From: a virus
Direction: 5' to 3' (one strand)
Length of the DNA stretch: 64,000 nucleotides
Virus record (IMG/VR): IMGVR_UViG_3300047560_001714
Location: 32,001 to 96,000 of that record
This document shows, piece after piece, positions 9,604 through 49,304 of this stretch; the first letter of the stretch is position 1; each line of letters opens with the position of its first letter. The notes under the pieces are model-generated. The model had not been told where the DNA came from and did no database searches. It was given only the letters and a program-made list of their open reading frames with translations. The position numbers and the translations under genes are program-made.

Positions 9604-9605
9604 TT

Positions 9606-30367: not shown

Positions 30368-30700
30368 CCTTCAAAGTGAAGGCATTCAAGACGGGGGTTC
30401 GACTCCCCCCAGTTCCACCATAAAACACATTAGAGGTATCAGAGTGGGGCCATAGCCATAAACTTCCTGCCCCCCCCTAAAAGGGAAGTGCTAGTGTGTT
30501 TTATAATGGGGCTGTCATGGTTTCGATTGGGTGAGATAATGGAGACGGCAACAGGTGAGGTGACTGTCCTAAACAGCGCAAAACAAGTAATCGCAAACGA
30601 TTCAAATTTCGAATTCTATACATTAGATAACATCGATTTAGATGTTATGGCTGCTTAATAACCAGCCGATTCCGGGGCATGTATGCCCTGTTACCTAAAA
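30368..30700 (+). ncRNA. ssrA: Two-piece (circularly permuted) tmRNA
   Basis: T-arm plus CAGTTCC-A-CCA ending at 30420 precedes the GGGGCTG 5' end at 30508 (G3.U70); tag ORF 30593-30658 ANDSNFEFYTLDNIDLDVMAA*. Confidence 0.9.
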
Positions 30701-30707
30701 TACAACT

Positions 30708-30732
30708 AAGCTGCCTTCGGGCAGCTTTTTTT
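30708..30732 (+). terminator. Rho-independent terminator after tmRNA
   Basis: AAGCTGCC-ttcg-GGCAGCTT plus U-run. Confidence 0.9.
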
Positions 30733-33981: not shown

Positions 33982-34500
33982 TAATAATTAAGGCACCTAT
34001 CAGGCAACACTCAGGCACACACACTTCATATGATACTCGCACCGGTAAGGAAAATAGGTGCCGCGAGATAAGGGATGTACTCCGCTTAGAGCGAACTGGG
34101 ATGAAGCAGTAAACTTAGCAACTACCCGAAAGGATGATGATTGGACATGCCTTCCCATATAACCAATTTTGCTATTTTAAGGAACCATAGGCTAAATGAG
34201 GGTTAAAAACCCACCTTATACATATATGATTAGTGTATATATGTATAAGCACCGTCAGACATAAGAAACAAAAACGCGCTTCGAGGTACCGGCTGACCGC
34301 CTCTGTAATTAGCGTAACACTAGTGTCCGTGATTAAGTAACTCAGATGAAATCACTGGATAATTTTTGAATACCATTTGTATTCAAATTTTTTTGCTCCC
34401 GTAAGGGGGCAATAATGTCCGAAATATCATAATCTAGATGAATATATATAAAGAAACATAATTAAACATCATGTCTCTATAATTAATTAAAAAAGATTGT
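33982..34500 (+). ncRNA. Candidate large structured non-coding RNA or replication origin
   Basis: ~520 nt with no long ORF, behind TCGACA-17-TATAAT (33947-75); many hairpins. Confidence 0.45.
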
Positions 34501-36008: not shown

Positions 36009-36093
36009 GGAGGTCGAGCGGCATAGGTGACTGCAGCGGACTGTAAATCCGTGCCTTTTACGGCACCTGGTTCGAATCCAGGGACCTCCACCA
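36009..36093 (+). tRNA. tRNA-Tyr(GTA)
   Basis: Cloverleaf, loop CTGTAAA, long variable arm, CCA. Confidence 0.93.
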
Positions 36094-36101
36094 AATATAA
36101 T

Positions 36102-36175
36102 TGGGATATAGTGTAATGGTAACACAACAGATTTTGATTCTGTCATTCTAGGTTCGAGCCCTAGTATCCCTGCCA
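36102..36175 (+). tRNA. tRNA-Gln(TTG)
   Basis: ACAGA-TTTTGAT-TCTGT, CCA. Confidence 0.93.
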
Positions 36176-36180
36176 AATGT

Positions 36181-36277
36181 TAGATTAAGATATAACAGGT
36201 TCGAATCCTGTCGTTCAAGGACAACCCCATAGGGGACGACTTACACTTGTGATCAAAGGAGATTTTATCTTAATCTG
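36181..36277 (+). ncRNA. CAGCA-stem family variant carrying a T-arm
   Basis: 11-bp stem AGATTAAGATA/TATCTTAATCT, terminal T.G, TAACAG linker running into ACAGG-TTCGAAT-CCTGT. Confidence 0.6.
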
Positions 36278-36282
36278 TTTTA

Positions 36283-36366
36283 GCTCTGGTGGCGAAATGG
36301 TAAACGCGGTGGTCTTAGAAACCACTACCGAAGGGTTTGGGAGTTCAAGTCTCCCCTAGAGTACCA
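36283..36366 (+). tRNA. tRNA-Leu(TAG)
   Basis: GTGGT-CTTAGAA-ACCAC, variable arm, CCA. Confidence 0.93.
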
Positions 36367-36383
36367 AATAAGACACATTAGGT

Positions 36384-36457
36384 GTGACTATGACGGAATT
36401 GGTAGACGTCCTCGATTGTGATTCGAGATTTTGTGGGTTCAAGTCCCACTAGTCACC
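36384..36457 (+). tRNA. tRNA-His(GTG), no encoded G-1 or CCA, acceptor extended by a 10-bp flanking inverted repeat
   Basis: CTCGA-TTGTGAT-TCGAG; ACACATTAGG/CCTAATGTGT flanks. Confidence 0.85.
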
Positions 36458-36479
36458 CCTAATGTGTTTAAAAATGATT

Positions 36480-36554
36480 GTCGCTATCGTCTATCGGTTA
36501 GGACACAAGATTTTCATTCTTGTAAGCGGGGTTCGACTCCCCGTAGCGACGCCA
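36480..36554 (+). tRNA. tRNA-Glu(TTC)
   Basis: CAAGA-TTTTCAT-TCTTG, CCA. Confidence 0.93.
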
Positions 36555-36563
36555 ATTAACAAA

Positions 36564-36640
36564 CTCCCATTAGCGCAGTCTGGTAGCGCGATCCGTTTGG
36601 GGCGGATAGGTCGGCGGTTCGAATCCGTCATGGGAGACCA
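36564..36640 (+). tRNA. tRNA-Pro(TGG)
   Basis: ATCCG-TTTGGGG-CGGAT, CCA. Confidence 0.93.
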
Positions 36641-36644
36641 AATA

Positions 36645-36708
36645 TAGGATGGTAACAGCAAATCTTTAGCCTTAGAATTCGGATCTAAACAGCCTAAACC
36701 CCATCCTG
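36645..36708 (+). ncRNA. CAGCA-stem element A (Leu-TAG-like loop)
   Basis: AGGATGG-TAACAGCAA...CCATCCT-G; CTTAGAA at 36671-77. Confidence 0.75.
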
Positions 36709-36718
36709 CTTTACAATC

Positions 36719-36777
36719 TAGGATACAACCAGCAACAATTACGCCAGACTGATAATCTGAAAATGTAACGTATCCTG
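36719..36777 (+). ncRNA. CAGCA-stem element B (Ile-GAT anticodon arm)
   Basis: AGGATAC-AACCAGCAA...GTATCCT-G; CAGA-CTGATAA-TCTG 36745-59. Confidence 0.8.
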
Positions 36778-36800
36778 TTTTTATAACTAATCGGACAACT

Positions 36801-37055
36801 ATGAAAGTAACAAAACTTGACAAACGATTTACATTATATCACAGGGGTTATATTCACGCTGTCATTGATGTTGAACAGTATGGTCCATTTATGGATCATG
36901 TTAAAACCTACTTTGCAGATAAAAAACATTTGTATGATTTTACCACCCAACGTAAACGAATTCATGGGTTGCCTTCTTACCGACGCAGTGTAGCTGTAAT
37001 CGGTTTTAGACGCGAAGAAGATTTAACTATGGTCCTATTATCTTTTAACAATTAA
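36801..37055 (+). CDS. Hypothetical protein, paralog of 37751-37990
   Basis: MKVTKLDKR...IGFRREEDLTMVLL versus MKIIKLDKR...IAFKREEHLTLALL. Confidence 0.65.
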   Translation: MKVTKLDKRFTLYHRGYIHAVIDVEQYGPFMDHVKTYFADKKHLYDFTTQRKRIHGLPSYRRSVAVIGFRREEDLTMVLLSFNN

Positions 37056-37099
37056 CGATTATTCCAGATTTATCAAAATAAAAACAATAAAGGTACAAT

Positions 37100-37327
37100 A
37101 TGAATAAAGAAGAATTACGCGAAATATTTTCAGAACAAACCACGAAATCGTCATCTGTGATGTTTATGATATCAACTTTAAAAGAAGTAATTGATGATAA
37201 ACAACATATTAGTTTACAAGTGTTAACCACTGAATCTGAAAAAATTGATGAACTGTTAGATAACGAATTGGTGGGATGTGAATTCGAATCATATGTGAAC
37301 GATATTCCAAAGTTCGTAAAACAATAA
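37100..37327 (+). CDS. Hypothetical protein
   Basis: ORF with AAGG SD. Confidence 0.5.
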   Translation: MNKEELREIFSEQTTKSSSVMFMISTLKEVIDDKQHISLQVLTTESEKIDELLDNELVGCEFESYVNDIPKFVKQ

Positions 37328-37442
37328 CAAATTATATGGATGAATACCGCATTTTTAGCTGGCTTACGATCGTTCATTATTAACAAATGTCATCGTCGGC
37401 TTGCAGACAAAAATCATCCAGCTTTAACCACAGGATAATATT

Positions 37443-37748
37443 ATGTTTTTTAATAAAGAATTACTAAACCAAATAGCGAAACTCACCACAATCGCTGAAA
37501 AGCTTCACGATGAAAATACAATGATGCGTAACACTTTTACAATGCTTGGGGAAACCATCAAAGAAATGGACGCTAAAATTAGCACATTAGAAGGTGAGGT
37601 TAAGAATTTAAGGACTCTGAATCAACTTGACCACCAGTACCCAATCGCAGTTAATAAGTGGGGAAGATGGAATTCTCACGGAGTTAAGAACCAAACGCCC
37701 CCAGATAAAGATTCTGGATGTAATCGTAAACACTGTGAATGTGACTAA
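37443..37748 (+). CDS. Coiled-coil hypothetical protein
   Basis: AGGA SD; heptad pattern. Confidence 0.5.
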   Translation: MFFNKELLNQIAKLTTIAEKLHDENTMMRNTFTMLGETIKEMDAKISTLEGEVKNLRTLNQLDHQYPIAVNKWGRWNSHGVKNQTPPDKDSGCNRKHCECD

Positions 37749-37750
37749 TA

Positions 37751-37990
37751 ATGAAAATTATTAAATTAGATAAACGCCATCGACTTTACTGTGAAGGATA
37801 TCGTTATGCAATTTCTAAAATTTATTTGGATAGAGGTATTGCAAAACATATCCGCAAGTATTATAATAAAGATTCGGAGATATTCAAGCAATATGCAACA
37901 ATCAATCGAACTTTTTTACCTTATGGATACATTGCATTTAAACGTGAAGAACATTTAACGCTGGCGTTGTTATCCTATGAAAATTATTAG
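37751..37990 (+). CDS. Hypothetical protein, paralog of 36801-37055
   Basis: Shared N- and C-terminal motifs. Confidence 0.65.
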   Translation: MKIIKLDKRHRLYCEGYRYAISKIYLDRGIAKHIRKYYNKDSEIFKQYATINRTFLPYGYIAFKREEHLTLALLSYENY

Positions 37991-38029
37991 TTGACAAATG
38001 AAAATGATGCTGTATAATAGCTAACAAAT

Positions 38030-38106
38030 GGCGGTGTAGCTCAGTTGGTTAGAGCAATCCTTTCATACGGGATAGGTCGTAGGTTCGATTCCTACTGTCG
38101 CCACCA
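38030..38106 (+). tRNA. tRNA with CAT anticodon (elongator Met or Ile2)
   Basis: ATCCT-TTCATAC-GGGAT, CCA; TTGACA/TATAAT promoter 37991-38018. Confidence 0.85.
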
Positions 38107-38114
38107 ACTAAATT

Positions 38115-38189
38115 GCCCTTATCGTTTAATGGATAGGACATGGGATTTCTACTCCCAGAATGGAGGTTCGATTCCTTCTAAGGGTGCCA
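38115..38189 (+). tRNA. tRNA-Arg(TCT)
   Basis: TGGGA-TTTCTAC-TCCCA, CCA. Confidence 0.9.
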
Positions 38190-38276
38190 GTGGTGCTAGA
38201 TATGGCCCACGTTAAAAACAGAATATATCAAACTGATTAGTTTGTGGTGTTAGTTGTGACCCACGTTAAAAACAGA
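38190..38276 (+). repeat. Two 33-nt direct repeats, each a GTGG/CCAC hairpin with an A-rich tail (preQ1-I-like)
   Basis: GTGGTGCTAGATATGGCCCACGTTAAAAACAGA (38190-222) and GTGGTGTTAGTTGTGACCCACGTTAAAAACAGA (38244-276). Confidence 0.7.
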
Positions 38277-38287
38277 TAACAATTTAT

Positions 38288-38362
38288 GCCCCTATAGCTC
38301 AATGGTAGAGCGTATTCCTCATAAGAATTTGGTTATAGGTTCGAACCCTGTTGGGGGCACCA
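38288..38362 (+). tRNA. tRNA with CAT anticodon (Ile2 or Met)
   Basis: GCCCCTA acceptor, ATTC-CTCATAA-GAAT, CCA. Confidence 0.88.
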
Positions 38363-38368
38363 ACAAAT

Positions 38369-38443
38369 ATATCGGTGGTGTAATGGTAACATACGGGCCT
38401 CCAAAGCCTTGAGATTAGGGTTCAAATCCTTACCGGTATGCCA
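38369..38443 (+). tRNA. tRNA-Trp(CCA)
   Basis: GGGC-CTCCAAA-GCCT, CCA. Confidence 0.9.
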
Positions 38444-38454
38444 AACAAAAAATA

Positions 38455-38544
38455 GGAAGAGTGGCAGAGTGGTTTAATGCAGCGGTCTTGAAAACCGCCG
38501 ACGGTTAGTCCCGTCCGTGAGTTCGAATCTCACTTCTTCCGCCA
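38455..38544 (+). tRNA. tRNA-Ser(TGA)
   Basis: GCGGT-CTTGAAA-ACCGC, long variable arm, CCA. Confidence 0.93.
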
Positions 38545-38548
38545 AATA

Positions 38549-38605
38549 TTGGATGCTAACAGCAATTACTTATAATTTCTTTTGGTGAAACTTAAATGCA
38601 TCCAG
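38549..38605 (+). ncRNA. CAGCA-stem element C (Gln-TTG anticodon arm)
   Basis: TGGATGC-TAACAGCAA...GCATCCA-G; TTTC-TTTTGGT-GAAA; near-identical to 45935-45990. Confidence 0.8.
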
Positions 38606-38615
38606 CTTAAATAAT

Positions 38616-38697
38616 GTTCTGTCGTATAACAGCTACATAGTAGTGAAATATGTCCCACACCACTGGGGAAGATATTGGTGAAAATCCATTCAGAACT
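38616..38697 (+). pseudogene. Degenerate tRNA-like element (Asp-like body, broken anticodon loop)
   Basis: GTTCTG/CAGAAC acceptor, TCCCA-caccac-TGGGG arm, GGTGAAAATCC T-arm-like, no CCA. Confidence 0.4.
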
Positions 38698-38726
38698 AAC
38701 ATTTCTAAACAACTTGAGAGATTATT

Positions 38727-38996
38727 ATGAAAAAATTACTTTTACTTGCTGGCCTAACTTTATTAGTAACTGGTTGTGCTGCAACCGGTGAATTAGATAC
38801 AGTTCCGGACCGTGTTAACAAACTAGAAGCCGCTGATAAGGTATTCAAAACCGATTTGAAAACTTTAACTGATAAAACCGCATCGTTGACAAATACACAA
38901 CAACAATGTATTAATCATTGTAAACTTTCTTCAAGTCGAATGAACAATTTCGATAGAAAACTTGATAACGCTTTCAACAAAGCACTAATTAAGTAA
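38727..38996 (+). CDS. Lpp/OprI-like outer-membrane lipoprotein
   Basis: Lipobox VTGC, coiled coil, C-terminal KLDNAFNKALIK ending in Lys. Confidence 0.65.
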   Translation: MKKLLLLAGLTLLVTGCAATGELDTVPDRVNKLEAADKVFKTDLKTLTDKTASLTNTQQQCINHCKLSSSRMNNFDRKLDNAFNKALIK

Positions 38997-39052
38997 TTTA
39001 AAAAAATCCTTGACAAATCTATAAACACACACTAGAATAACCTTTTATTTAA

Positions 39053-39265
39053 TTGGAGGTAAACACGATGTCTGAACAACTTAGTAGAATGATGTACACT
39101 GGCTTATTCCTTTTAATATTTGCGGTTATCTGTTCGACGTTTGGTGGATATGTCGTATATAACCACATGAGTAAAAATTATTTCCCAATCCAAGATAGCA
39201 ATATCGGTGGGTTTGTGTTTAGAAAAGGAAAAGTTTATTCATTAGAAGAAGTCAAGGATTTATAA
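39053..39265 (+). CDS. Small single-TM protein
   Basis: One TM segment; GGAGG SD (true start may be a few codons downstream). Confidence 0.5.
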   Translation: MEVNTMSEQLSRMMYTGLFLLIFAVICSTFGGYVVYNHMSKNYFPIQDSNIGGFVFRKGKVYSLEEVKDL

Positions 39266-39798
39266 TGAAAACTTTATCAACTATATTTTTTCTATTACTA
39301 TCACACTCAGCGTGTGCTGATGTGGTCAAAGTGATCGATACAAAGACCGGTAATATTGAATTAGTTAAAACACGTTCTTTCTCTCTAGCTAAAAATATAG
39401 ATAAAAAGATTTATTCAAAAGCTGACATAAATCGATTTGTCAAATTAGCATCAATTAAGAACAAGGTTGACGAAAAACTGATTCACGCTGTTATTAAGGC
39501 TGAAAGTAGTTATAGAAAAAATGCAATAAGTAAAGTAGGCGCAGCTGGTTTGATGCAACTCATCCCAGCAACTGCCACTAGATTTGGTGTGACCGACCGA
39601 TTTGATGTTAAACAGAATATTGACGGTGGTACCAAGTATCTTAAATTCCTACTAAATACGTTTAAGAACACACCACTTGCTCTGGCTGGTTATAATGCAG
39701 GGGAAAATGCAGTCATTAAATATAACTACAAAATTCCCAACTACCCAGAAACTAAAAATTATGTTAAAGTGGTGATGGAAAATTACGTAACGGAATAG
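39265..39798 (+). CDS. Soluble lytic transglycosylase (SLT domain)
   Basis: AVIKAESSY, SKVGAAGLMQLIPATA, NIDGGTKYL, ALAGYNAGE, ETKNYV. Confidence 0.93.
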   Translation: MKTLSTIFFLLLSHSACADVVKVIDTKTGNIELVKTRSFSLAKNIDKKIYSKADINRFVKLASIKNKVDEKLIHAVIKAESSYRKNAISKVGAAGLMQLIPATATRFGVTDRFDVKQNIDGGTKYLKFLLNTFKNTPLALAGYNAGENAVIKYNYKIPNYPETKNYVKVVMENYVTE

Positions 39799-39801
39799 AC
39801 T

Positions 39802-40563
39802 ATGATAACACTACTTAATATATATAAACAATCACTGTTAATGGCTAAACTAAGTTCATTGGCATATAATACTGACCAATCATTCAAAGATCTCGGATAT
39901 GATAGTAAGTATATATTTAGGAAAGGTTCCGAAGCATATGTTTTGTGGGATAACGACGATTTTATTATAGTTTGTCGTGGTACACAACCAAATAAGTTTG
40001 AAGACATTATAGCTGATATTAGACTCAATTTGGTACCTAGCTATTCTAACCGTGGTAGAGCGCACGCCGGATTTAAACACAGCGTCGATCTATTGTGGCC
40101 AGAACTGGAAAAACTTATTATTAAGTATGGTTCAAACAGAAAAATCTGGTGTACTGGACACAGTCTAGGTGCAGCAATGGCAACATTGATTACAGCAAGG
40201 TTGCCATTATTAAAGACCACTACCCCAACATTATTTACATTTGGTAGCCCTCGTGTTGGCGATGCTGATTTACACGATTATCTAATCGAGTTAGGTGTTG
40301 AACATCATAGATGGGTCAATAATGCGGATATGGTTACACGTAACCCAGTATTCCCATATCGTCATCACGGTATACTATATTATATGAATCATCATGGTGA
40401 ACTTGCCACGATGAGTATAATTAGAACCGCGATTGATAGAATTAAAGGTTTCATTACTGGTATTAAGAAAGGAAAAGTAAATTTCTTTGTTAATCACTTC
40501 ATTGAAAATTATATTAACAACATAGAAAAAATGGTTGATGATGAAAAAAATAGCAATTCCTAA
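39802..40563 (+). CDS. Class 3 lipase
   Basis: VCRGTQ, HAGF, TGHSLGAAMA, TFGSPRVG, VNNADMV. Confidence 0.92.
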   Translation: MITLLNIYKQSLLMAKLSSLAYNTDQSFKDLGYDSKYIFRKGSEAYVLWDNDDFIIVCRGTQPNKFEDIIADIRLNLVPSYSNRGRAHAGFKHSVDLLWPELEKLIIKYGSNRKIWCTGHSLGAAMATLITARLPLLKTTTPTLFTFGSPRVGDADLHDYLIELGVEHHRWVNNADMVTRNPVFPYRHHGILYYMNHHGELATMSIIRTAIDRIKGFITGIKKGKVNFFVNHFIENYINNIEKMVDDEKNSNS

Positions 40564-40816
40564 TTTTACGGATGATGAATCCGACCCTTTCTGGTGGGAT
40601 AAATTTGCGTCAGACATCGGGTATCTTGACATACAGGAATACCAATATGATGAATATGCAAAAATATTAACGAATAAAGCCAATAACATATTATTAGAAT
40701 ATAATGCCACATTTGAGTTATCACTAATGGCCGATCCAAGTGCTATTTGTGATTATGCAGTTATTACCTTTAAAGATGAAGCAAAGTATAATTGGTTTTT
40801 ACTAAAATACACATAA
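40535..40816 (+). CDS. Hypothetical protein
   Basis: C-terminal ITFKDEAKYNWFLLKY motif typical of a small phage family. Confidence 0.55.
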   Translation: MMMKKIAIPNFTDDESDPFWWDKFASDIGYLDIQEYQYDEYAKILTNKANNILLEYNATFELSLMADPSAICDYAVITFKDEAKYNWFLLKYT

Positions 40817-41490
40817 TGCGGTCGGATGAATATAAAAATAAAATAATAAATAACCTTTCATCACCGTATAGGATTGATAATTTTATAACAGAAACTGAGC
40901 GTAATTTATTAAAAGACTATTTTAACGATAGTTCACATAAAATAATTAAAAATACTGGACCTATTGTACTACATCTATCTGAATATGATTACCAGAATGA
41001 AGTACTGTATGGTATAAAAACTAGAGTTGAGCAATTATTAAATTCATCTGTATATTTTGGGCATTTTTTCTATACGAATCGACCACATATAATTCATAAT
41101 GATGATAGTTTAAGTATCAACGTGCCGTATAAAGGTATAAACATACCAATCGAAACGTGTGAGGAAACATCATTGTGTATTTTTGATCAATTCTACCTAG
41201 ATGGCCCATGTAAATTTTTTAATGGGTCAACTGATATACCAACCTATCATAATTTACAAAAATATGAATATTCTGGTGTTCAAGGATTGGTCGATGGTGA
41301 TTTTGATGAAAGTTTTCGTATAAAACATTTAAACCATTTAGAACCATCATGGTTACAAGGGCTTTCTATAAAAGAAATGATTCAGCAAACCATGAATTGT
41401 GGTATAGTATTTGATACAGTAAACTTACACTGTTCAACAAATTTTAAACAATCCAAACTTGGATTAAGTTTTTTTACACATTTGATATGA
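40792..41490 (+). CDS. Hypothetical protein (possible oxygenase-like fold)
   Basis: PHIIHND...NLHCS pattern; start probably near 40813. Confidence 0.55.
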   Translation: MVFTKIHIMRSDEYKNKIINNLSSPYRIDNFITETERNLLKDYFNDSSHKIIKNTGPIVLHLSEYDYQNEVLYGIKTRVEQLLNSSVYFGHFFYTNRPHIIHNDDSLSINVPYKGINIPIETCEETSLCIFDQFYLDGPCKFFNGSTDIPTYHNLQKYEYSGVQGLVDGDFDESFRIKHLNHLEPSWLQGLSIKEMIQQTMNCGIVFDTVNLHCSTNFKQSKLGLSFFTHLI

Positions 41491-42026
41491 TCAACAAAGA
41501 TGCGTTCTCGAATGGCCAAATTGATAGTAAACTATGGTTATGCCAAGAATTAGAAAATTTAGAATGGACGTCAGAACTAACGCAAATATACGGTGGATGG
41601 TATGGAATTACCGCATTTTTATTATTAAGTCGTGAAAAATTCAAAGTAACGCGCATAGAAAGTTATGATATTGACCCATCGTGTCAGGTTATTGCTGATA
41701 TGATTAATGAAAATTGGGTATTTAAAAATTGGCAATTTAAAGCACATACCGCTGATTGTAATAATATATTAACACAGCCAGATTTAATTATTAATACCTC
41801 AACTGAACATTTTGATGAAATGGACTGGTTTCATAACATAAAACCAGGTACACGAGTGATATTACAAGGCAACAATATGCCACATGACGATCACTTTATA
41901 CACAGTCAATCACTTAAAATGTTTATTGACAACTACCCATTAACTAGTATATACTATACTGGTGAATTAGATTTTAAATACCCATCTTGGGGATTCACTA
42001 GATACATGATTATCGGTGTGAAATAA
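41487..42026 (+). CDS. Class I SAM-dependent methyltransferase-like protein
   Basis: DAFSNGQIDSKLW, YGGWYG, SYDIDP, LIINTSTEH. Confidence 0.7.
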   Translation: MINKDAFSNGQIDSKLWLCQELENLEWTSELTQIYGGWYGITAFLLLSREKFKVTRIESYDIDPSCQVIADMINENWVFKNWQFKAHTADCNNILTQPDLIINTSTEHFDEMDWFHNIKPGTRVILQGNNMPHDDHFIHSQSLKMFIDNYPLTSIYYTGELDFKYPSWGFTRYMIIGVK

Positions 42027-42046
42027 TCATATCACTAAATATTGTT

Positions 42047-42502
42047 ATGTTAAATATATACACAAAAGAATTGATGGGTAGTTTTAAAAATATTAATGAT
42101 AAGATTGACAAATTAAACGAAATTGGTGTAACATATACACGGATTGATCTTGATGGTAGTTACATTGGTGAAATAAAGTTCTTGCATAATGTTCCTTATC
42201 ATGATACAATATCTGTAAATGAAAATACTGAGAATTATCCAGAATTAAGAAACAAGTTTAAACGTGAACATACTCATGATGACTTTGAAATGAGATTATT
42301 CACACACGGTACAGCATCTTTTTTCATAAATGCTAATGATTTAGTTTATGAATTAGTTGTTGGACCAGCTGATTTAATCAGTATACCAGCTAATACCAAA
42401 CATTGGTTCGATGCTGGTGACAACCCAGACTTTTCGGCAATTAGGTTTTTTACAGACGAAGATGGATGGATTGCAAAATATACTGATGAAAAAAATGCTT
42501 GA
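42047..42502 (+). CDS. mtnD: Acireductone dioxygenase (methionine salvage, cupin)
   Basis: EHTHDDFEMRLF, DLISIPANTKHWFDAG, AIRFFTDEDGWIA. Confidence 0.88.
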   Translation: MLNIYTKELMGSFKNINDKIDKLNEIGVTYTRIDLDGSYIGEIKFLHNVPYHDTISVNENTENYPELRNKFKREHTHDDFEMRLFTHGTASFFINANDLVYELVVGPADLISIPANTKHWFDAGDNPDFSAIRFFTDEDGWIAKYTDEKNA

Positions 42503-42562
42503 CAAGTTAAAAAGATAAGTGTATAATTTGTCACATATTGAAACAGTTCTTTAACAAATTAT

Positions 42563-42639
<77 letters not shown>

Positions 42640-42642
42640 ATA

Positions 42643-42775
42643 TAGGATCTTAACAGCATATTCTATTTGCCTTCTAAGCACGAGATGTGGGTTCGAATCC
42701 CACACGTAATTTGCGGACTAATGTAGCAAATAACGTTAGCTTAACGGGATAGAGCACGATAAAAATAAGATCCTG
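42643..42775 (+). ncRNA. CAGCA-stem element D: circularly permuted tRNA-Arg(TCT)-like body
   Basis: AGGATCT-TAACAGCAT...AGATCCT-G; order is anticodon arm, T-arm, loop-closed acceptor, D-arm. Confidence 0.85.
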
Positions 42776-42782
42776 ACCCTTA

Positions 42783-42900
42783 TAGGTTTCTAACAGCAAG
42801 TATTATGGGGATCGGAAATGGTAGGTTCGAGTCCTACTATGCAGTCGTATGATTGCATAAGGGCTACGGGTGGTGCCGCCGATTATAAAAATGAAACCTG
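42783..42900 (+). ncRNA. CAGCA-stem element E: YrlA-like permuted tRNA body
   Basis: AGGTTTC-TAACAGCAA...GAAACCT-G; ATCGG/CCGAT stem, T-arm GTAGG-TTCGAGT-CCTAC, 9-bp closed acceptor, D-like arm. Confidence 0.85.
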
Positions 42901-42909
42901 TTAATTTTA

Positions 42910-43025
42910 TGAATGCTAACAGCAATTTAATAACACCTGACGTGTCGTGAGTTCGAATCTCACCGTGTAAGTAATTACACGTAGCTCAGTTGGTAGAGCA
43001 TCTGGCCATAAAAAAATGCATTCAG
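42910..43025 (+). ncRNA. CAGCA-stem element F: YrlA-like permuted tRNA body
   Basis: TGAATGC-TAACAGCAA...GCATTCA-G; GTGAG-TTCGAAT-CTCAC, CGTGTAA-gtaa-TTACACG, canonical D-arm GCTCAGTTGGTAGAGC. Confidence 0.85.
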
Positions 43026-43034
43026 TATATATTT

Positions 43035-43096
43035 TGGTTGTTTTCAGCAATTTTAAAGATTCGATTTCTTATTTTTCCCAGGTGGGATACAACCAG
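43035..43096 (+). ncRNA. CAGCA-stem element G (T-loop mimic)
   Basis: TGGTTGT-TTTCAGCAA...ACAACCA-G; AAGA-TTCGATT-TCTT. Confidence 0.75.
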
Positions 43097-43343
43097 TAAC
43101 TTTTGACTTTTGGTAACACTATGTTTATACTTATTACTGCTGAATCAATTATATTATTATTAACAATATACTTTGGTTGGCGTATTTGGACAAAGATTTC
43201 AAACAAAATTACGGAGTTTTTCAAATGACTACTGATACATCGGATGATGAAGCTGTTTTAACAATGGACCCCGAAACTTTTGCAAAACTGTTTCGAGATG
43301 AACTTGAAAAGCTTAAACAAAAGCAGAACGACGCACAATAATT

Positions 43344-43430
43344 GGAAGGTTGCCAGAATGGTATTGGAGCGGATTGCTAATCCGTCAACGGGAAACCGTT
43401 GTATAGGTTCGAACCCTATACCTTCCGCCA
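43344..43430 (+). tRNA. tRNA-Ser(GCT)
   Basis: GCGGA-TTGCTAA-TCCGT, long variable arm, CCA. Confidence 0.93.
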
Positions 43431-43443
43431 ATTACCTATAAAT

Positions 43444-43510
43444 TGGATACATACAGCATATTTAAAATCACTGCAAATGACCTTTCCGGGTGATAACCGG
43501 AGGTATCCAG
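43444..43510 (+). ncRNA. CAGCA-stem element H (Cys-GCA anticodon arm)
   Basis: TGGATAC-ATACAGCAT...GTATCCA-G; TCA-CTGCAAA-TGA 43468-80. Confidence 0.8.
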
Positions 43511-43532
43511 ATTAAATTTTAAGGAGACATTT

Positions 43533-43760
43533 ATGAGAATAGTAGTCCCAGCGTACCACGTACCAGTTGTTGCAAATTATATTTCAAGAGCACCATATGT
43601 AATTTGCCCAAAAGATGCGTTGGTATTAAATCGTTATGATGTTGGAACACAAAAAGAAACTGCTGATGTATTATTCTATACATTATATGCAGGTGGTGGG
43701 ATACATATGCATCGCGTTAAAGATGTGTCTGAAATAAACACAATAAACGTATACGCATAA
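43533..43760 (+). CDS. Hypothetical protein
   Basis: AAGGAG SD directly after element H. Confidence 0.55.
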   Translation: MRIVVPAYHVPVVANYISRAPYVICPKDALVLNRYDVGTQKETADVLFYTLYAGGGIHMHRVKDVSEINTINVYA

Positions 43761-43784
43761 AAATTTAACAATAAAAAATAATAT

Positions 43785-43859
43785 TCCCTAATAGCTCAGT
43801 GGTAGAGCAGACGGCTGTTAACCGTCCGGTCGGTGGTTCGAGCCCATCTTAGGGAGCCA
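43785..43859 (+). tRNA. tRNA-Asn(GTT)
   Basis: GACGG-CTGTTAA-CCGTC, CCA. Confidence 0.95.
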
Positions 43860-43883
43860 ATTTAACATTAAAAAGGAAATGCT

Positions 43884-44036
43884 ATGAGCAATTGGCACGG
43901 TGGAAAGGGTTCTAAACAACGACCCTTTGATAGACAAAAATTTTCAGACAACTGGGACGCTATCTTTAAAAAAACCCCAGATAACGTCCAAGAAAATAAA
44001 CCAAACCAAGAAAAAGATGACAATGAAAAAAAATAA
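43884..44036 (+). CDS. Small conserved phage protein (MSNWHGGKGSKQRP..., 50 aa), not in the ORF track
   Basis: AAGGA SD; GGKGSxxRP...NWDAIF motif. Confidence 0.65.
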   Translation: MSNWHGGKGSKQRPFDRQKFSDNWDAIFKKTPDNVQENKPNQEKDDNEKK

Positions 44037-45540
44037 AATAGTAATTGTCGGGGGCGGTTCAGCTGGATGGATTACGTTATCATATTTATCAGCAACCACC
44101 GACGCTGAACTAGTATTAATCCACTCAAATGAAATCGATTCTATTGGAGTTGGCGAAAGCACAACACCAACTATTAAACATATTGCGGAAACCGTTGGCG
44201 TACCGGAATACGAATGGATGAAACAATCCAAAGCAACATTTAAATACGGTGTTGATTTCCATGACTTTAACAGTTTAGGTTCACGATGGGTACATACCTT
44301 TGATGATATGATACCACATCAGGCATTTACTAGACCATTATGCGATAATGGTAAAGAAGAATTTAAACGTGATTTGACTAGTGTTGATTATTTTTTACAT
44401 CATTATGGTAAAGATGTTTCATTATTTAACGAAACCCATGGACCACAAGAATACTTGATAAAAAATAAATTAAGTCCATTTAATAAAAATGGAATTAACA
44501 ATATAAACAAATTTCCAGGATATGGGTATCATGTTAATGCATTTGAATTTGGAAAATGTTTAAAAAATCACGTACCAGAAACCCGATATGAAGAAATAAA
44601 CGCAACCATAATTGAAGTTGTAGAAAATAATGATGGTATTGAGTACGTTGTATTAGACACTGGTGAAAAAATCTATGGTGATATATTCTTTGATTGCTCT
44701 GGGTTTACTAGGGTACTTATGAAAAATCTATCAACCTGGGATTCATATACTGAATTAGTAAATGACCGTGCAATATGGGGTGAAATTCATAATGTTACCT
44801 CAGACGAACCAGTTACGGGTGTATATGCGCAAGAATCAGGATGGATATGGACTATCCCAACATGGAACCAAATTGGTTCTGGGTATGTATATTCTAATAA
44901 ATTTAGTTCTGATGAACGGGCCGAAGAAGTAATTACAGACTTTTGGCGTGAACGTGGTTACAAATTTGTTAAAAGAAAACAAGTTGCGTTTGACGCCGGA
45001 AGATTAAACAATGTTACATTTAAAAATGTAATTAGCAATGGATTGGCCCAAAGTTTTATAGAACCATTGGAAGCCACCAGCTTAATGATTACGTGCGTAA
45101 CAGTACGCAGTTTTAGTGATTTATACAATAAGCATAAAATATGGAGTGCAAAAACTAGTTCAATTCATGATCGAATAATGAAACGGTTTATTGACCATAC
45201 TAAAAAGTTTGTTCTATATCATTATAGACTATCTGAAAGAATAGATACACCATATTGGCGGTCAGTTGGTAACGATCCAACCGCAGTGCAAGAGGTATCT
45301 GATTATATAGATATTTTGGCATCAAGTAAATGGGTTGGCAAAGGGGATACCCTATTGAATCAATGGAACTGGGTAAGTATGCTCCTTGGCTTTAATAAAA
45401 AATATACTAATAAATTAAAATCAGATGTTGACATTGACGATTATTTATTATATAATAAAACCTTAATTTATCATTACCAGTCATTAGTTGGTCAAAATAT
45501 TCCAATACTTGATTTGTTAAATAAAATTAATAATACTTGA
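44017..45540 (+). CDS. Flavin-dependent tryptophan halogenase family protein
   Basis: IVGGGSAGW, IGVGESTTP, FFDCSGF, GWIWTIP, FIEPLEATS. Confidence 0.9.
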   Translation: MTMKKNKIVIVGGGSAGWITLSYLSATTDAELVLIHSNEIDSIGVGESTTPTIKHIAETVGVPEYEWMKQSKATFKYGVDFHDFNSLGSRWVHTFDDMIPHQAFTRPLCDNGKEEFKRDLTSVDYFLHHYGKDVSLFNETHGPQEYLIKNKLSPFNKNGINNINKFPGYGYHVNAFEFGKCLKNHVPETRYEEINATIIEVVENNDGIEYVVLDTGEKIYGDIFFDCSGFTRVLMKNLSTWDSYTELVNDRAIWGEIHNVTSDEPVTGVYAQESGWIWTIPTWNQIGSGYVYSNKFSSDERAEEVITDFWRERGYKFVKRKQVAFDAGRLNNVTFKNVISNGLAQSFIEPLEATSLMITCVTVRSFSDLYNKHKIWSAKTSSIHDRIMKRFIDHTKKFVLYHYRLSERIDTPYWRSVGNDPTAVQEVSDYIDILASSKWVGKGDTLLNQWNWVSMLLGFNKKYTNKLKSDVDIDDYLLYNKTLIYHYQSLVGQNIPILDLLNKINNT

Positions 45541-45576
45541 CATTATAAATAAATACTGATATAATAGGTACATAAA

Positions 45577-45765
45577 ATGACAGTAGCTAGTAAAGCAAAC
45601 CGAAAAGCGAATCCGCTTAAAACTAAAAATGACAAAACACGTATTAACGTGTTAAGTGACAAACAGTTAGTATTAGCATTAGAAAAAGCAACACGCGGCC
45701 GTGATAAATCAAAAATCAGAAGTCGTATTGCATTTAAACTTAAAAATCATTCACAACAACCCTAG
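45577..45765 (+). CDS. Small basic hypothetical protein
   Basis: Behind TTGACA-17-TATAAT (45537-65). Confidence 0.55.
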   Translation: MTVASKANRKANPLKTKNDKTRINVLSDKQLVLALEKATRGRDKSKIRSRIAFKLKNHSQQP

Positions 45766-45774
45766 AGGTGTATT

Positions 45775-45921
45775 ATGGCAGTAGAAGTAAAAAAATGTAA
45801 TTGCAGTGGTTCACTAGCGGCTAAGTTCCAAGATAAAGAATATGGTCAAGGAATGCGCGTTATGAATCAAACCTTGAAAAAAGAATACAATTGTACAGTT
45901 TGTGGTGCAAAACACAAATAG
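45775..45921 (+). CDS. Small Zn-ribbon-like protein (48 aa), not in the ORF track
   Basis: GAGGTG SD; CNC...FQDKEYGQGMRV...CTVCG. Confidence 0.65.
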   Translation: MAVEVKKCNCSGSLAAKFQDKEYGQGMRVMNQTLKKEYNCTVCGAKHK

Positions 45922-45934
45922 TTACACCTAATTT

Positions 45935-45990
45935 TGGATGCTAACAGCAATTACTTATAATTTCTTTTGGTGAAAATAAAATGCATCCAG
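45935..45990 (+). ncRNA. CAGCA-stem element I (Gln-TTG anticodon arm), duplicate of element C
   Basis: TGGATGC-TAACAGCAA...GCATCCA-G. Confidence 0.8.
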
Positions 45991-46003
45991 CATAAATTAA
46001 TAT

Positions 46004-46079
46004 GCCACCGTAGCTCAATCGGTAGAGCGCCTCACTTGTAATGAGGATGTTGAGGGTTCGATTCCTTTCGGTGGCTCCA
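46004..46079 (+). tRNA. tRNA-Thr(TGT)
   Basis: CCTCA-CTTGTAA-TGAGG, CCA. Confidence 0.95.
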
Positions 46080-46102
46080 TTCACAATAACTTAAATGATC
46101 TT

Positions 46103-46309
46103 ATGACACCGGAACCAGACGATTTAGAAAACATTTTAAATAATCTTACTGATGACGATTTCGACAGCATCAACGAATCTATAAATTCTGACATTGACGA
46201 CGAGTTCGACGACGATGAGGAACTGTCGATTGAAGAAATGAAAGATATTTGGGGCGTAGACTTTGATGACGATGATTTAGACCCATTTGATATCCCTGGC
46301 GACAGGTGA
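46103..46309 (+). CDS. Very acidic small protein
   Basis: About 40% Asp/Glu by eye. Confidence 0.5.
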   Translation: MTPEPDDLENILNNLTDDDFDSINESINSDIDDEFDDDEELSIEEMKDIWGVDFDDDDLDPFDIPGDR

Positions 46310-46319
46310 TAACCACTTT

Positions 46320-46376
46320 TGGATACTTACAGCATATTAACTTCGACTTGAAACTTGAAAACAACTATGTATCCAG
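46320..46376 (+). ncRNA. CAGCA-stem element J (Ser-TGA-like loop)
   Basis: TGGATAC-TTACAGCAT...GTATCCA-G; CTTGAAA 46347-53 inside a TTCGA/TTGAA stem. Confidence 0.78.
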
Positions 46377-46400
46377 AATTAAACATGTAGTGTAATCTGA

Positions 46401-46471
46401 GCGGGATTGGTATATAGGTTGTGCCTTAGCCTTCCAAGCTAATGAAACGAGTTCGACTCTCGTATCCCGCT
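46401..46471 (+). tRNA. tRNA-Gly(TCC), no encoded CCA, acceptor extended by a 10-bp inverted repeat
   Basis: TTAGC-CTTCCAA-GCTAA; TGTAATCTGA/TCAGATTACA flanks. Confidence 0.88.
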
Positions 46472-46498
46472 CAGATTACAATCCGTGTAACTCTTACA

Positions 46499-46688
46499 AG
46501 AATAGTTTCAGCAACATACTACAAATAACTTACTGGAAATGGTATTTTATCGTGGGTTTTAGCCCAACAAAACCGATGGAATATCTAGTGTTGGTAGAAT
46601 ACCAAATAGGCTAGTAGAATACTAGATAGGATCTGGTTGGGTAGACCGAGACTGACTGAAAACTAATTTCACCCAAAAAGCTATTCTG
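46499..46688 (+). ncRNA. CAGCA-stem element K, large multi-hairpin insert
   Basis: AGAATAG-TTTCAGCAA...CTATTCT-G enclosing about 165 nt of hairpins. Confidence 0.7.
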
Positions 46689-46716
46689 TTTCCTTTAACC
46701 TTACAATGAGAAAAAT

Positions 46717-46989
46717 ATGTCTAATATTACAGCAAACCATATCTTAGTAGAAACGCTTGAACAAGCACAAGACTTACAACGCCAGTTATCGGAAGGCGCA
46801 TCATTCTCAGACTTAGCAAAATCTCACAGCAAATGTCCGAGTGGTACACGTGGCGGTGATTTAGGTTCATTTGGTAGAGGCCAAATGGTACCAGAATTTG
46901 AAAATGCCGCATTTGGCTTAGATGTCGGTGGGTTTAGTGAACCAGTACAAACACAATTTGGATACCATTTAATTAATCGCACCGCTTAA
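46717..46989 (+). CDS. ppiC: Parvulin-type peptidyl-prolyl isomerase
   Basis: ANHILV, FSDLAKSHSKCPS, GGDLGSFGRGQMVPEFE, TQFGYHLI. Confidence 0.95.
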   Translation: MSNITANHILVETLEQAQDLQRQLSEGASFSDLAKSHSKCPSGTRGGDLGSFGRGQMVPEFENAAFGLDVGGFSEPVQTQFGYHLINRTA

Positions 46990-46990
46990 T

Positions 46991-47278
46991 ATGGATTACA
47001 CTGTATTATATGATCGGGTTTTAATTAAACCGATTGAAGAAAACAAAACATTAAGTTCTGGTATTGTTTTAGTAGCAGAACAAAAAAGTACAACCACCAC
47101 TGGTACAGTAATTGCAATTGGTGATGGAAAACAGTATGATAATGGTAAGATAATCCCATTAACAGTCCAAGTTGATGATAATGTGTTATTCATGAAAAAT
47201 ACCGGTATCCCAACTAAATTAGATGGCGTTGAATATCTTATCTTGCGAGAATCAGAAATTCTTGGTATCATAGAATAA
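46991..47278 (+). CDS. groES: Co-chaperonin GroES
   Basis: LYDRVLIK, SSGIVL, GTVIAIGDG, VQVDDNVLF, ILRESEILG. Confidence 0.9.
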   Translation: MDYTVLYDRVLIKPIEENKTLSSGIVLVAEQKSTTTTGTVIAIGDGKQYDNGKIIPLTVQVDDNVLFMKNTGIPTKLDGVEYLILRESEILGIIE

Positions 47279-47291
47279 AATATAGTATTAA

Positions 47292-47387
47292 AGGTTAATT
47301 TCCGCATACCATTTTTCTCCAGAGATGTACAAGACCCCATTGATCAGTGGTGAGATATGAAAAATCTCAAATATGATCATTAACCTG
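47292..47387 (+). ncRNA. CAGCA-stem variant L (CCGCAT linker)
   Basis: AGGTTAA-TTTCCGCAT...TTAACCT-G; inner TGATCA/TGATCA and TGAGAT-atgaaaa-ATCTCA hairpins. Confidence 0.5.
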
Positions 47388-47402
47388 ATTACCCATACCA
47401 AT

Positions 47403-47477
47403 GCACCAGTGACAGAATGGCTATGTAGCAGTCTGCAAAACTGTTTAATGCAGGTTCGACTCCTGTCTGGTGCTCCA
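47403..47477 (+). tRNA. tRNA-Cys(GCA)
   Basis: GCAGT-CTGCAAA-ACTGT, T discriminator, CCA. Confidence 0.95.
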
Positions 47478-47508
47478 AATAAATATGTTATAAACTAGGA
47501 GTATTGAC

Positions 47509-47808
47509 ATGCATCACGAACGATTATCAGAATATGCTGTAATCAGAGATAAACTTTCAACCCGCCGGGCATTTTTATTACATCTCATCGATGAGGATTC
47601 ATATGAACTTGTTGGAATCGTAAACTTTGAAACCGGCGAATTCCAAACAGAAAATATCGTTGAACCGGAGCACGATTTAGATGATTACCCATTTCTTTAT
47701 ACTGTAAAGGATACAGATTGGTATTGTCATCCAGATGATCACGACGCAATGATTAAAAAATATGCGGAAGAAAGTCTTAAAGAAACATTTAAAAAATTAA
47801 ATATTTAA
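47509..47808 (+). CDS. Hypothetical protein
   Basis: AGGAG SD. Confidence 0.55.
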   Translation: MHHERLSEYAVIRDKLSTRRAFLLHLIDEDSYELVGIVNFETGEFQTENIVEPEHDLDDYPFLYTVKDTDWYCHPDDHDAMIKKYAEESLKETFKKLNI

Positions 47809-47850
47809 TTTTACTTGACAACCGCCAAAAACCTGGTATAATTACCCACA

Positions 47851-47887
47851 TAGATTAGATACAGCAACTATTTTTTACACTAAACTG
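47851..47887 (+). promoter_or_regulatory. Minimal CAGCA-stem element M in the 5' UTR of the DUF2828 gene
   Basis: T-AGATTAG-ATACAGCAA...CTAAACT-G directly before the AAAGGTGA SD; promoter TTGACA 47815-20 / TATAAT 47837-42. Confidence 0.7.
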
Positions 47888-47900
47888 AAAGGTGAATTAC

Positions 47901-49304
47901 ATGACATTAATTGCAGAAAAAACAACAACAACAACAACAAATGGTATGGCGGCGTTAAACACATCAACGACAGCCCTTACCGATTTATTCTTTAACATTG
48001 GTGCTATGCGTGGTAAAGATATTATTCCACAATTCACCAGTGCATTATCTGAAAATCGTGAGTTAGCATTACGAATTGCACTATGGTCGCGTGATGCTCG
48101 TGGTGGCGCTGGTGAAAGACAACTTTTCAGAGATATTCTAAATCATTTAGAAAACACCGATGTTTCCGCCGCCGAAGCATTAGCAAACCGCGTTGGTGAA
48201 TTGGGCAGATGGGATGATTTGTTTGTGTTTAAAACCAAACATATGAAAGAATTTGGGTTTGAGTTAATTAAACAAGCGTTGGCAGCTAAGAATGGATTGG
48301 CAGCTAAATGGACCCCACGTAAAGGACCAATTTCGGTTGAATTACGCAAATACTTGGGTTGGAGTCCAAAGCATTATCGTAAAACATTGGTGGCATTGAC
48401 ATCAGTGGTTGAAACCCAAATGTGTGCTAATGATTGGGATAACATCAATTTCAGCCACGTGCCATCTGTTGCTAGTGCTAGATACAAAAAAGCTTTCAAT
48501 AGACATACACCTAAGTTTGCTGAATATGTTAATGCACTGGTTTCTGGTGATACATCAGTTAAAGTCAATGCTGGTGCAATCTATCCATATGATGTTTTAA
48601 GTGCGTTGAAAGGTTATAATGTTGATTCAACGATTAAAAACCATGTTATTGCACAATGGGCCGCATTACCAAACTTTGTTGGTGACGCTAATATTTTACC
48701 ATTAGTTGACGTTAGTGGTTCTATGTCGTGTTCAGCGGGTGGTAAAAACGCATCTCTAACTTGTATGGATGTTGCAGTTTCCCTTGGGTTGTATCTTTCA
48801 GATAAAAACTTAGGTGAATTCAAAAACAAGTTTATTACGTTTCATGAAAAACCAGAATTGATAACACTTGAAGGGGATATTGTTCAACAGAACCAGCAAA
48901 TGCTAAGATCAAAATGGGGCATGAGTACAAACTTGGAATCAGCATTTAACTTGATTTTAAATTTAGCAACCAGTTGCAATGTTCGTAACGCAGATATGCC
49001 AGAAATTTTGTTGATTTTATCGGATATGCAATTTAACCAGGCGGTTACATCTCCAAGTGATACCGCAATGGAAATGATTGAACGTGCATATGCCGCTGCT
49101 GGATATTCTGTTCCTAAAATTGTATTCTGGAATTTAAATGCAAGTGGGAATGTCCCAGTAACATCGGATAAATCTGGCGCAGCATTGGTATCTGGGTTCT
49201 CACCATCAATTATGACTAGTTTATTATCTGCCGATATGTCTGAGTTTACACCATACGGCATTATGATTAAAACAATCATGAATGAACGGTATGACCACCA
49301 GTAA
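47901..49304 (+). CDS. DUF2828-family protein (TROVE/Ro60-like helical ring plus vWA domain)
   Basis: RDARGGAGER, LGRWDDL, LAAKWTPR, VPSVASARY, MIDAS LVDVSGSM, SDMQFN, IVFWNL, ALVSGFS. Confidence 0.85.
   Translation: MTLIAEKTTTTTTNGMAALNTSTTALTDLFFNIGAMRGKDIIPQFTSALSENRELALRIALWSRDARGGAGERQLFRDILNHLENTDVSAAEALANRVGELGRWDDLFVFKTKHMKEFGFELIKQALAAKNGLAAKWTPRKGPISVELRKYLGWSPKHYRKTLVALTSVVETQMCANDWDNINFSHVPSVASARYKKAFNRHTPKFAEYVNALVSGDTSVKVNAGAIYPYDVLSALKGYNVDSTIKNHVIAQWAALPNFVGDANILPLVDVSGSMSCSAGGKNASLTCMDVAVSLGLYLSDKNLGEFKNKFITFHEKPELITLEGDIVQQNQQMLRSKWGMSTNLESAFNLILNLATSCNVRNADMPEILLILSDMQFNQAVTSPSDTAMEMIERAYAAAGYSVPKIVFWNLNASGNVPVTSDKSGAALVSGFSPSIMTSLLSADMSEFTPYGIMIKTIMNERYDHQ

Follow-up and report, generated by a model that had tools for sequence, protein, structure and literature searches.

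The DNA analysed here, which we call the window, is a stretch of 64,000 nucleotides (nt) from positions 32,001 to 96,000 of the virus record IMGVR_UViG_3300047560_001714, which as a whole has 187,935 base pairs (bp) of viral sequence with a CheckV completeness of 51% and probably comes from a jumbo phage. The window includes 17 transfer RNA (tRNA) genes, all on the + strand and spanning 36009-47477, with six perfect TTGACA/TATAAT sigma-70 promoters at the heads of transcription units. Among the tRNA genes there is a family of elements that share a handle with CAGCA after a closing stem, and at 47901-49304 there is a gene for a protein with a predicted Ro60-like fold. We discuss here what the elements are and how they may relate to the protein.

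A script for an exact 7-bp closing stem, with 3 nt, CAGCA, a cargo and the complementary 7 nt following its 5' strand, gives 11 elements between 36646 and 46687, all on the + strand, compared with about 5.6 such architectures per whole record, both strands included, in shuffled genomes. A 12th copy of the handle is free of cargo, and takes the family to 12 members within 36646-47886, again all on the + strand. Every copy has NWA-CAGCA-A at its 5' position, directly after the closing stem. The members, which we name A to K in order, and the gene are as follows.

36646-36707, + strand: element A, AGGATGG-taa-CAGCA ... CCATCCT, 5 nt 3' of tRNA-Pro, with predicted loop ATTCGGA.
36720-36776, + strand: element B, AGGATAC-aac-CAGCA ... 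GTATCCT, with the hairpin CAGA-CTGATAA-TCTG (36745-36759), a copy of the tRNA-Ile(GAT) loop.
38550-38604, + strand: element C, TGGATGC-taa-CAGCA ... GCATCCA, 5 nt 3' of tRNA-Ser(TGA), with a candidate arm TTTC-TTTTGGT-GAAA (38576-38590) that is Gln-like with G37.
42644-42774, + strand: element D, long, a circularly permuted tRNA-Arg(TCT) mimic with loop CTTCTAA (42671-42677), T arm, loop-closed acceptor and D arm.
42784-42899, + strand: element E, long, with a T arm and no consistent anticodon arm found.
42910-43024, + strand: element F, long; it consists of a T arm, an acceptor capped by GTAA and a D arm, and matches the tRNA-like module of YrlA better than the other elements do.
43035-43095, + strand: element G, short, with a T-arm look-alike AAGA-TTCGATT-TCTT (43056-43070) and a small CCCA/TGGG hairpin.
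43444-43509, + strand: element H, 13 nt 3' of tRNA-Ser(GCT), with CTGCAAA (43471-43477, a Cys loop) on a 3-bp stem and a stable hairpin TTCCGG-GTGATAA-CCGGAG (43484-43502).
45935-45989, + strand: element I, near-identical to C, 14 nt 5' of tRNA-Thr.
46320-46375, + strand: element J, TGGATAC-tta-CAGCA ... GTATCCA, 25 nt 5' of tRNA-Gly, with a tandem CTTGAAA (46347-46360) and no flanking stem.
46499-46687, + strand: element K, 189 nt, with a non-tRNA cargo and no Rfam match.
47852-47886, + strand: cargo-free handle, AGATTAG-ata-CAGCA ... CTAAACT with one mismatch, in the leader of the Ro60-like gene.
47901-49304, + strand: Ro60-like gene, with Pfam DUF2828 and DUF7788/vWA domains and a DVSGSM MIDAS motif (an adhesion site dependent on metal ions), its product being the candidate handle binder.

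A search of Rfam with the handle and with the short elements gave no match, whether the cut-off was the gathering score or the E-value, and a megablast of the region against cultured phages gave tRNA-sized matches only.

In the case of the gene at 47901-49304, the product matches PHROG 850 ('RNA-binding protein'), and the DxSxS residues of its MIDAS (D273-V-S275-G-S277) are invariant in 32 homologues. An AlphaFold model, with a mean predicted local distance difference test (pLDDT) score of 69, is matched over its full length by Foldseek to ten Ro60 entries with probability 1.0. VIA-align gives Z scores of 9.1-13.8 over 348-380 residues for ten rows, covering model residues 10-470, the best being the Ro60 of the Thermus phage phiLo (13.8), with human at 11.1, Xenopus at 10.2 and Deinococcus at 9.7, whereas structural matches to the vWA domain only have Z of at most 6.9. 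The modelled protein thus folds like Ro60, with a HEAT-repeat ring and a vWA domain. Homologues are present in 710 cultured-phage records, and some of the mycobacteriophage copies are annotated as "Ro-like RNA binding protein".

This gene has thousands of homologues. We fetched 80 related viral loci, and these relatives are the basis for most of the comparisons that follow. In 1.05 Mb of them the element architecture is present 323 times on the strand of the gene and 28 times on the opposite strand, with the consensus AGGAT-NN-NWA-CAGCA-A ... A-rich ... NN-ATCCT. Covariation in the closing stem was assessed with only the 5' motif and the reverse complement of its first five bases as anchors, to avoid circularity. 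Of 233 cases, 211 have complementary bases at both of the variable stem positions, where about 15 are expected, with 13 dinucleotide types represented. Compensatory changes are seen at five of the seven pairs of the closing stem, which is also the only structure that RNAalifold predicts from a mixed alignment.

The short elements were described in an earlier note on this DNA as lone anticodon arms mounted on CAGCA stems. On folding each element with RNAfold we find that the window alone gives a mixed picture, in which the hairpin of B and the GTGATAA hairpin of H pass as anticodon arms, C, I and the CTGCAAA of H are marginal, and A and J fail. The Ile arm proposed for B is in the minimum-energy fold and its loop equals that of tRNA-Ile(GAT). 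Elements C and I are indeed near-identical copies, 7385 nt apart, and their proposed Gln arm can form, with loops at 38580-38586 and 45965-45971, but it is not the minimum-energy fold and its G37 is unlike the phage tRNA-Gln loops. The Cys loop proposed for H is present and acceptable, but its stem has only 3 bp and the stable hairpin of this element carries an Ile-GAT-like loop instead. The observation that elements adjoin tRNAs holds, with gaps of 5-25 nt to tRNA-Pro, Ser, Ser, Thr and Gly, and because the elements are so close to tRNA ends they would be released from tRNA precursors by ordinary tRNA processing.

The claim of anticodon mimicry, only partly confirmed in the window, is stronger in the relatives. 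When AU-rich short elements were folded one at a time, the minimum-energy structure frequently lacked the arm or there were competing folds, and we therefore used explicit searches for stem and loop with shuffled controls. Of 99 unique short cargos, 46 combine a stem of 4 bp or more with a 7-nt loop of the form YT-NNN-RN, compared with 5.1 +/- 2.0 (maximum 11) in 200 dinucleotide shuffles, a comparison that had been proposed in the earlier note. In the loop logo C32 occurs in 42 of 68, T33 in 53, A37 in 54 and A38 in 49, with positions 34-36 variable and C32 about fourfold over background. If no stem is presupposed, an exact 7-mer of a phage tRNA loop is found in 62 of the 99 short cargos, against 27.1 +/- 4.5 in shuffles. 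These loop 7-mers occur 69 times, with flanks that pair over at least 4 bp in 36 cases and over exactly 5 bp in 28, where the figure for all positions is 5.3%. This loop-anchored test is the unbiased one; compensatory changes at four of the five pairs of the arm stem come from 21 elements with a user-specified structure, which were picked for having an arm, so that their paired percentage is biased.

The triplets displayed are also those that the phages use. All 46 loops, and all 15 distinct triplets, have anticodons that are among the 31 found in phage tRNA genes, and the mimic 7-mers agree letter for letter with the cognate phage tRNA loops. We considered that the agreement might be trivial, as 31 anticodons give an expectation of 41%, yet 15 of 15 distinct triplets is still significant. 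There is no A34 in any of the 46 loops, although A makes up 46% of the cargo. The anticodons displayed by the family are those for Thr, Ser, Cys, Lys, Ile, Met, Gln, Glu, Asn, Phe and Arg, and related elements within a group differ in their anticodon (Lys, Thr, Asn) but share the loop frame. With exact phage-tRNA loops on stems that are mostly of 5 compensated base pairs, these cargos are genuine anticodon-arm mimics, as the earlier note had held. Capture of tRNAs with complementary anticodons by kissing loops was dropped on reasoning, as most mimic anticodons lack a complementary tRNA anticodon. The siting near tRNAs is likewise general, with 189 of 276 elements within 30 nt of a tRNA or of another element.

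The long members have more of the tRNA. In D, F and many of the relatives the order is an anticodon-like hairpin, about 5 nt, a T arm, a loop-closed acceptor stem and a D arm. When 29 long cargos were cut at the acceptor loop and rejoined without linkers, aragorn called a tRNA in 22 of them, and in the clear cases the dominant anticodon called is the triplet of the hairpin (Arg TCT for D in the window; Ile GAT, Cys GCA and Arg TCT in relatives). On this sequence evidence we take the long members to be permuted whole-tRNA mimics, and the short members resemble long ones that have lost the tRNA body. The Rfam YrlA model (RF02553, gathering score 69) gives 37.7 bits for F and 21.8 bits for D, over model positions 27-81 only. 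There are other cargos as well: some gene-proximal copies have 9-nt loops, and many of the related loci have handle RNAs with cargos of about 160 and 230 nt directly upstream of the Ro60-like gene (for example 9475-9638 and 9648-9876 in locus L044), which are conserved at that place, have no match in Rfam and are likewise without tRNA features.

The handle and the gene occur together. In the window all copies are on the strand of the gene, J, K and the leader copy at no more than 1.6 kb from it and the others at no more than 11.3 kb, and in nearly all of the 80 related loci there are two or three elements directly upstream of the gene, within 550 nt. The pairing spans Felix O1-like phages, T4-like phages and mycobacteriophages. 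E. coli phage wV8, Citrobacter phage Ci1 and Mycobacterium phage Lolly9 all have handles next to a copy of the gene that is itself in or next to tRNA genes. The coordinates for two of these are as follows.

Phage wV8 (L087), 9707-9772, 9873-9930, 10269-10336 and 10356-10481: handle RNAs just downstream of a gene annotated 'RNA-binding protein'.
Phage Lolly9 (L088), 5428-5690: three handle RNAs directly after a DUF2828 gene, with a GGAC-NNN stem, in a GC-rich phage.

The stem of the wV8 handles is AGACC-NN / NN-GGTCT, one of them has a T arm, closed acceptor and D arm, and all four are unannotated in the record. The Lolly9 trio comprises one short RNA, one with a tRNA-like body and one with TTTCA-CTGCTAA-TGAAA, a Ser GCT loop on a 5-bp stem; one of the Lolly9 handle RNAs matches the YrlA core at 37.7 bits. 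In the reverse test loci were fetched by the handle pattern alone. Those with the stem-closed pattern have tRNA genes in 43 of 43 cases, and of the 25 with a length of 8 kb or more, 13 have the Ro60-like gene, as against 0 of 35 chance matches to the pattern (0 of 19 for those of at least 8 kb). With the handle co-occurring with a Ro60-fold gene across unrelated phage families, and a copy in the leader of the gene, the protein-bound scaffold that the earlier note had envisaged seems very probable.

With regard to known systems, the closest are the Y RNAs, which are encoded beside Ro60, pair their ends and offer Ro60 a conserved unpaired motif as its contact; some are tRNA-like and others short hairpins, and they link Ro60 to other proteins, PNPase among them, or act as a gate to its cavity (PMC4201824, PMC12135203). 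Those relevant here are YrlA and YrlB (Rfam RF02553) of Chen et al. 2014 (PMC4201824) and Yrl1 and Yrl2 of the Thermus phage phiLo (PMC12135203). Phage Ro60 proteins with Y RNAs are already known from mycobacteriophages, CcrColossus, Bacillus phage G and phiLo (PMC4201824, PMC12135203), and for jumbo phages a review mentions TROVE proteins with tRNA-like partners (PMC7824862). The handle RNAs are, like Y RNAs (for which Chen et al. took proximity as 4 kb on the same strand), encoded near a Ro60-fold gene on its strand, and are closed by a stem between their 5' and 3' ends, after which comes a conserved unpaired motif, with one class that has T arm, closed acceptor and D arm, another that is a short hairpin, and several RNAs per protein. 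They differ in having NWA-CAGCA-A in place of GNCGAAN0-1G/CGAA, in a protein of a DUF2828/DUF7788 branch that lacks a Pfam TROVE match, and in number and layout, with up to 12 RNAs scattered over about 11 kb of tRNA operons. The long handle RNAs, unlike YrlA, retain the anticodon arm and so are whole permuted tRNA mimics, and the isolated anticodon arm of the short ones is not described in the Y RNA literature that we searched.

As the plan is the same and the motif different, we read the elements as partner RNAs of the Ro60-like protein, and think it probable that they are small, Y-RNA-like RNAs with the anticodon arm as bait. The short and long members are one family, and would be non-coding RNAs that are cut from tRNA operon transcripts and do the work of Y RNAs, the long ones YrlA-like and the short ones YrlB-like, by means of another protein-binding motif. 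The handle, with its 7-bp stem (AGGAT-NN / NN-ATCCT) and unpaired NWA-CAGCA-A, would be the docking site for the ring of the Ro60-like protein. The apical module of the short members copies an anticodon arm, typically with a 5-bp stem and a C-U-NNN-A-A loop that has a phage-used anticodon, and by analogy with Y RNAs this arm, or the whole tRNA mimic, could engage a third party. The bait would bring to the ring, or keep off the real tRNAs, a reader of anticodon loops (for example a nuclease, a modification enzyme or the decoding site). The data show the family, the covariation of its stem, the mimicry of anticodon loops, the Ro60 fold and the pairing of gene and handle across phage families; binding, tethering and the identity of this factor are what we infer. 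A perfect TTGACA-16-TATAAT promoter (47815-47842) precedes the cargo-free handle and the Shine-Dalgarno sequence follows it, and this position suggests autoregulation, in which the protein would also limit its own translation by feedback.

There are several points that weigh against a Y-RNA-like partnership. The genome record gives no hit to Pfam TROVE (PF05731), and the PDB yields no Ro60 when searched with a profile of the protein sequence, so that homology to Ro60 rests on a model with a mean pLDDT of 69. The known Ro60-binding motif of bacterial Y RNAs is absent from the handle RNAs, with NWA-CAGCA-A in its place, and the YrlA model covers no more than the tRNA-like T-acceptor-D core of D and F, at scores under its gathering threshold. 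Of the six anticodon arms put forward for the window, two do not fold as such: in J the CTTGAAA is present twice in tandem with no stem beside it, and in A the CTTAGAA (36671-36677) is inside a stem, the loop being ATTCGGA. The gene is always in or beside tRNA clusters and its co-location with the handles could partly reflect a shared neighbourhood. The partnership is deduced from sequence and predicted structure, with binding, expression and processing putative.

The alternative that survives best is a special case of the bait model and is compatible with the Ro60 partnership. It was the suggestion of the earlier note, and holds that the elements are a panel of decoys or sensors, in which anticodon-arm RNAs would be the sacrificial substrate, competitive inhibitor or trip-wire for anticodon nucleases of the host, with the Ro60-like ring holding or protecting them. 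We regard this as possible but doubtful, and would name PrrC, RloC, PARIS AriB, a retron effector or a HEPN nuclease as the target with the same reserve. The exact anticodon loops, with anticodons used by the phage and no A34, and the display of many different anticodons are what such a panel would have. The tRNA sets are very large, with 1034 tRNA genes in 71 of the loci plus the window, and this trait has been tied to tRNA-targeting defences (PMC11464382, PMC12409363). In cells, damaged tRNAs induce an RNA-repair operon to which Ro60 and Y RNA genes belong (PMC7790460), and mycobacteriophage LeBron has a Ro-like protein together with an RNA ligase and a polynucleotide kinase (PMC13148394). 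However RtcB (PF01139) and RNA_ligase (PF09414; Rnl2-type) were not found in this record or in three relatives that are 94-100% complete, and a search for Rnl1 was uninformative as its control matched nothing in any control genome. The changes of anticodon among related elements, with the loop frame kept, also count against decoys, and seem to fit a general mimicry of anticodon loops at least as well as tuning to one nuclease. Decoys that act stoichiometrically would have to be very abundant, and unmodified mini-arms are possibly poor substrates for nucleases that need modified wobble bases, such as PrrC. Cleavage of the elements, or protection by them, is hypothetical, and the sequences speak neither for nor against decoys for anticodon nucleases, which we would accept only with hesitation.

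Phages are known to use tRNAs in counter-defence, and tRNA-Lys of T5 counters the PARIS defence (PMC11464382). Like the handle RNAs these tRNAs have real anticodon loops and are found in tRNA clusters and large tRNA repertoires. However those of the T5 type are complete chargeable tRNAs that replace cleaved host tRNAs, whereas handle RNAs have no free acceptor end, or no tRNA body, and therefore cannot decode. If the decoy suggestion is taken further, the Ro60-tethered panel of anticodon-arm and whole-tRNA mimics might trap, titrate or report on attackers or readers of anticodon loops, and would be an RNA-based counter-defence in hundreds of cultured phages. This is speculative, as is its extension to Felix O1-like, T4-like, Listeria, Staphylococcus and mycobacteriophages, with a handle that is perhaps shared with the Class I RNAs of Dictyostelium.

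The Class I RNAs are of about 60 nt, with a 6-bp closing stem and an 11-nt motif in which T3, C6, C9, A10 and A11 are near-invariant; unlike the handle RNAs they are eukaryotic, are reported to be bound by the RNA recognition motif (RRM) protein Rnp1A, and have no described tRNA-like cargo (PMC7919456). They resemble handle RNAs in size, in a covarying closing stem and in a conserved motif right after the 5' strand, with the remainder variable. The near-invariant letters fit ..UUACAGCAA, and the Class I motif is reportedly CCUUACAGCAA, a literal string that was found neither in the text of the paper nor elsewhere in the literature searched; in that form it would match the handle.

It is unlikely that the arm is an inherited remnant, with the short members being deletion derivatives of whole-tRNA mimics in which the arm merely stabilises or spaces the handle and the loop is not read. 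The long members do have the same arm at the same place, directly after the CAGCA linker, some members have other cargo (the T arm in G; the 9-nt loops in gene-proximal copies) and the arms of A and J are degraded. However drift should give unused anticodons, A34 and loops of other sizes, whereas we see 46 of 46 anticodons in use and A34 in 0 of 46 in cargo that is 46% A; C32 is enriched about fourfold, the stems are mostly of exactly 5 bp with compensatory changes, and the same design is present in a GC-rich mycobacteriophage.

Most improbable of all is that the stem and CAGCA are processing punctuation (an RNase site or spacer for tRNA polycistrons) or a miniature mobile repeat, unrelated to the Ro60-like protein, for although the elements are 5-25 nt from tRNA ends, have terminal inverted repeats and vary in copy number (12 here against about 4-5 in relatives), the strand bias of 323 to 28 and the stem covariation argue for selection on RNA and not transposition, there is a handle in the leader of the gene, the handle tracks the gene across phage families in which the layout of the tRNA cluster differs, and punctuation would have no need of anticodon mimicry in the cargo.

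Several other features of the window were seen. There is a permuted two-piece transfer-messenger RNA (tmRNA) of beta-proteobacterial type at 30306-30730 (Rfam tmRNA_permuted 132 bits, beta_tmRNA 123.5 bits), for which aragorn gives a tag of 21 residues, and a Polynucleobacter-1 RNA motif at 34034-34177 with 53.6 bits, above the gathering score; the two together hint at a freshwater betaproteobacterial host. A 12-bp inverted repeat at 36183-36280 (TAGATTAAGATA ... TATCTTAATCTG) encloses a T-arm-like ACAG-GTTCGAATC-CTGT and more hairpins, and as it has taACAG and not the full CAGCA it may be a divergent or decayed member of the handle family. Between the tRNA blocks there are two small open reading frames, 36801-37055 (84 residues) and 37751-37990 (79 residues), which are alike in the DNA of their N- and C-terminal parts and look like paralogues; neither has a match in Pfam or PHROG.

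Neither in Rfam 15 nor in the literature searched did we find the CAGCA handle, the association of this handle with the DUF2828 branch, or anticodon arms displayed in isolation, and genome annotations miss these RNA genes or label them pseudo-tRNAs. Ro60 and Y RNAs are conserved from bacteria to humans. Exact, isolated anticodon loops on handle RNAs point to readers of anticodon loops as the partners. The branch is found in mycobacteriophages and in coliphages that are easy to work with (wV8 and further phages of the Felix O1-like group), which would make assays straightforward.

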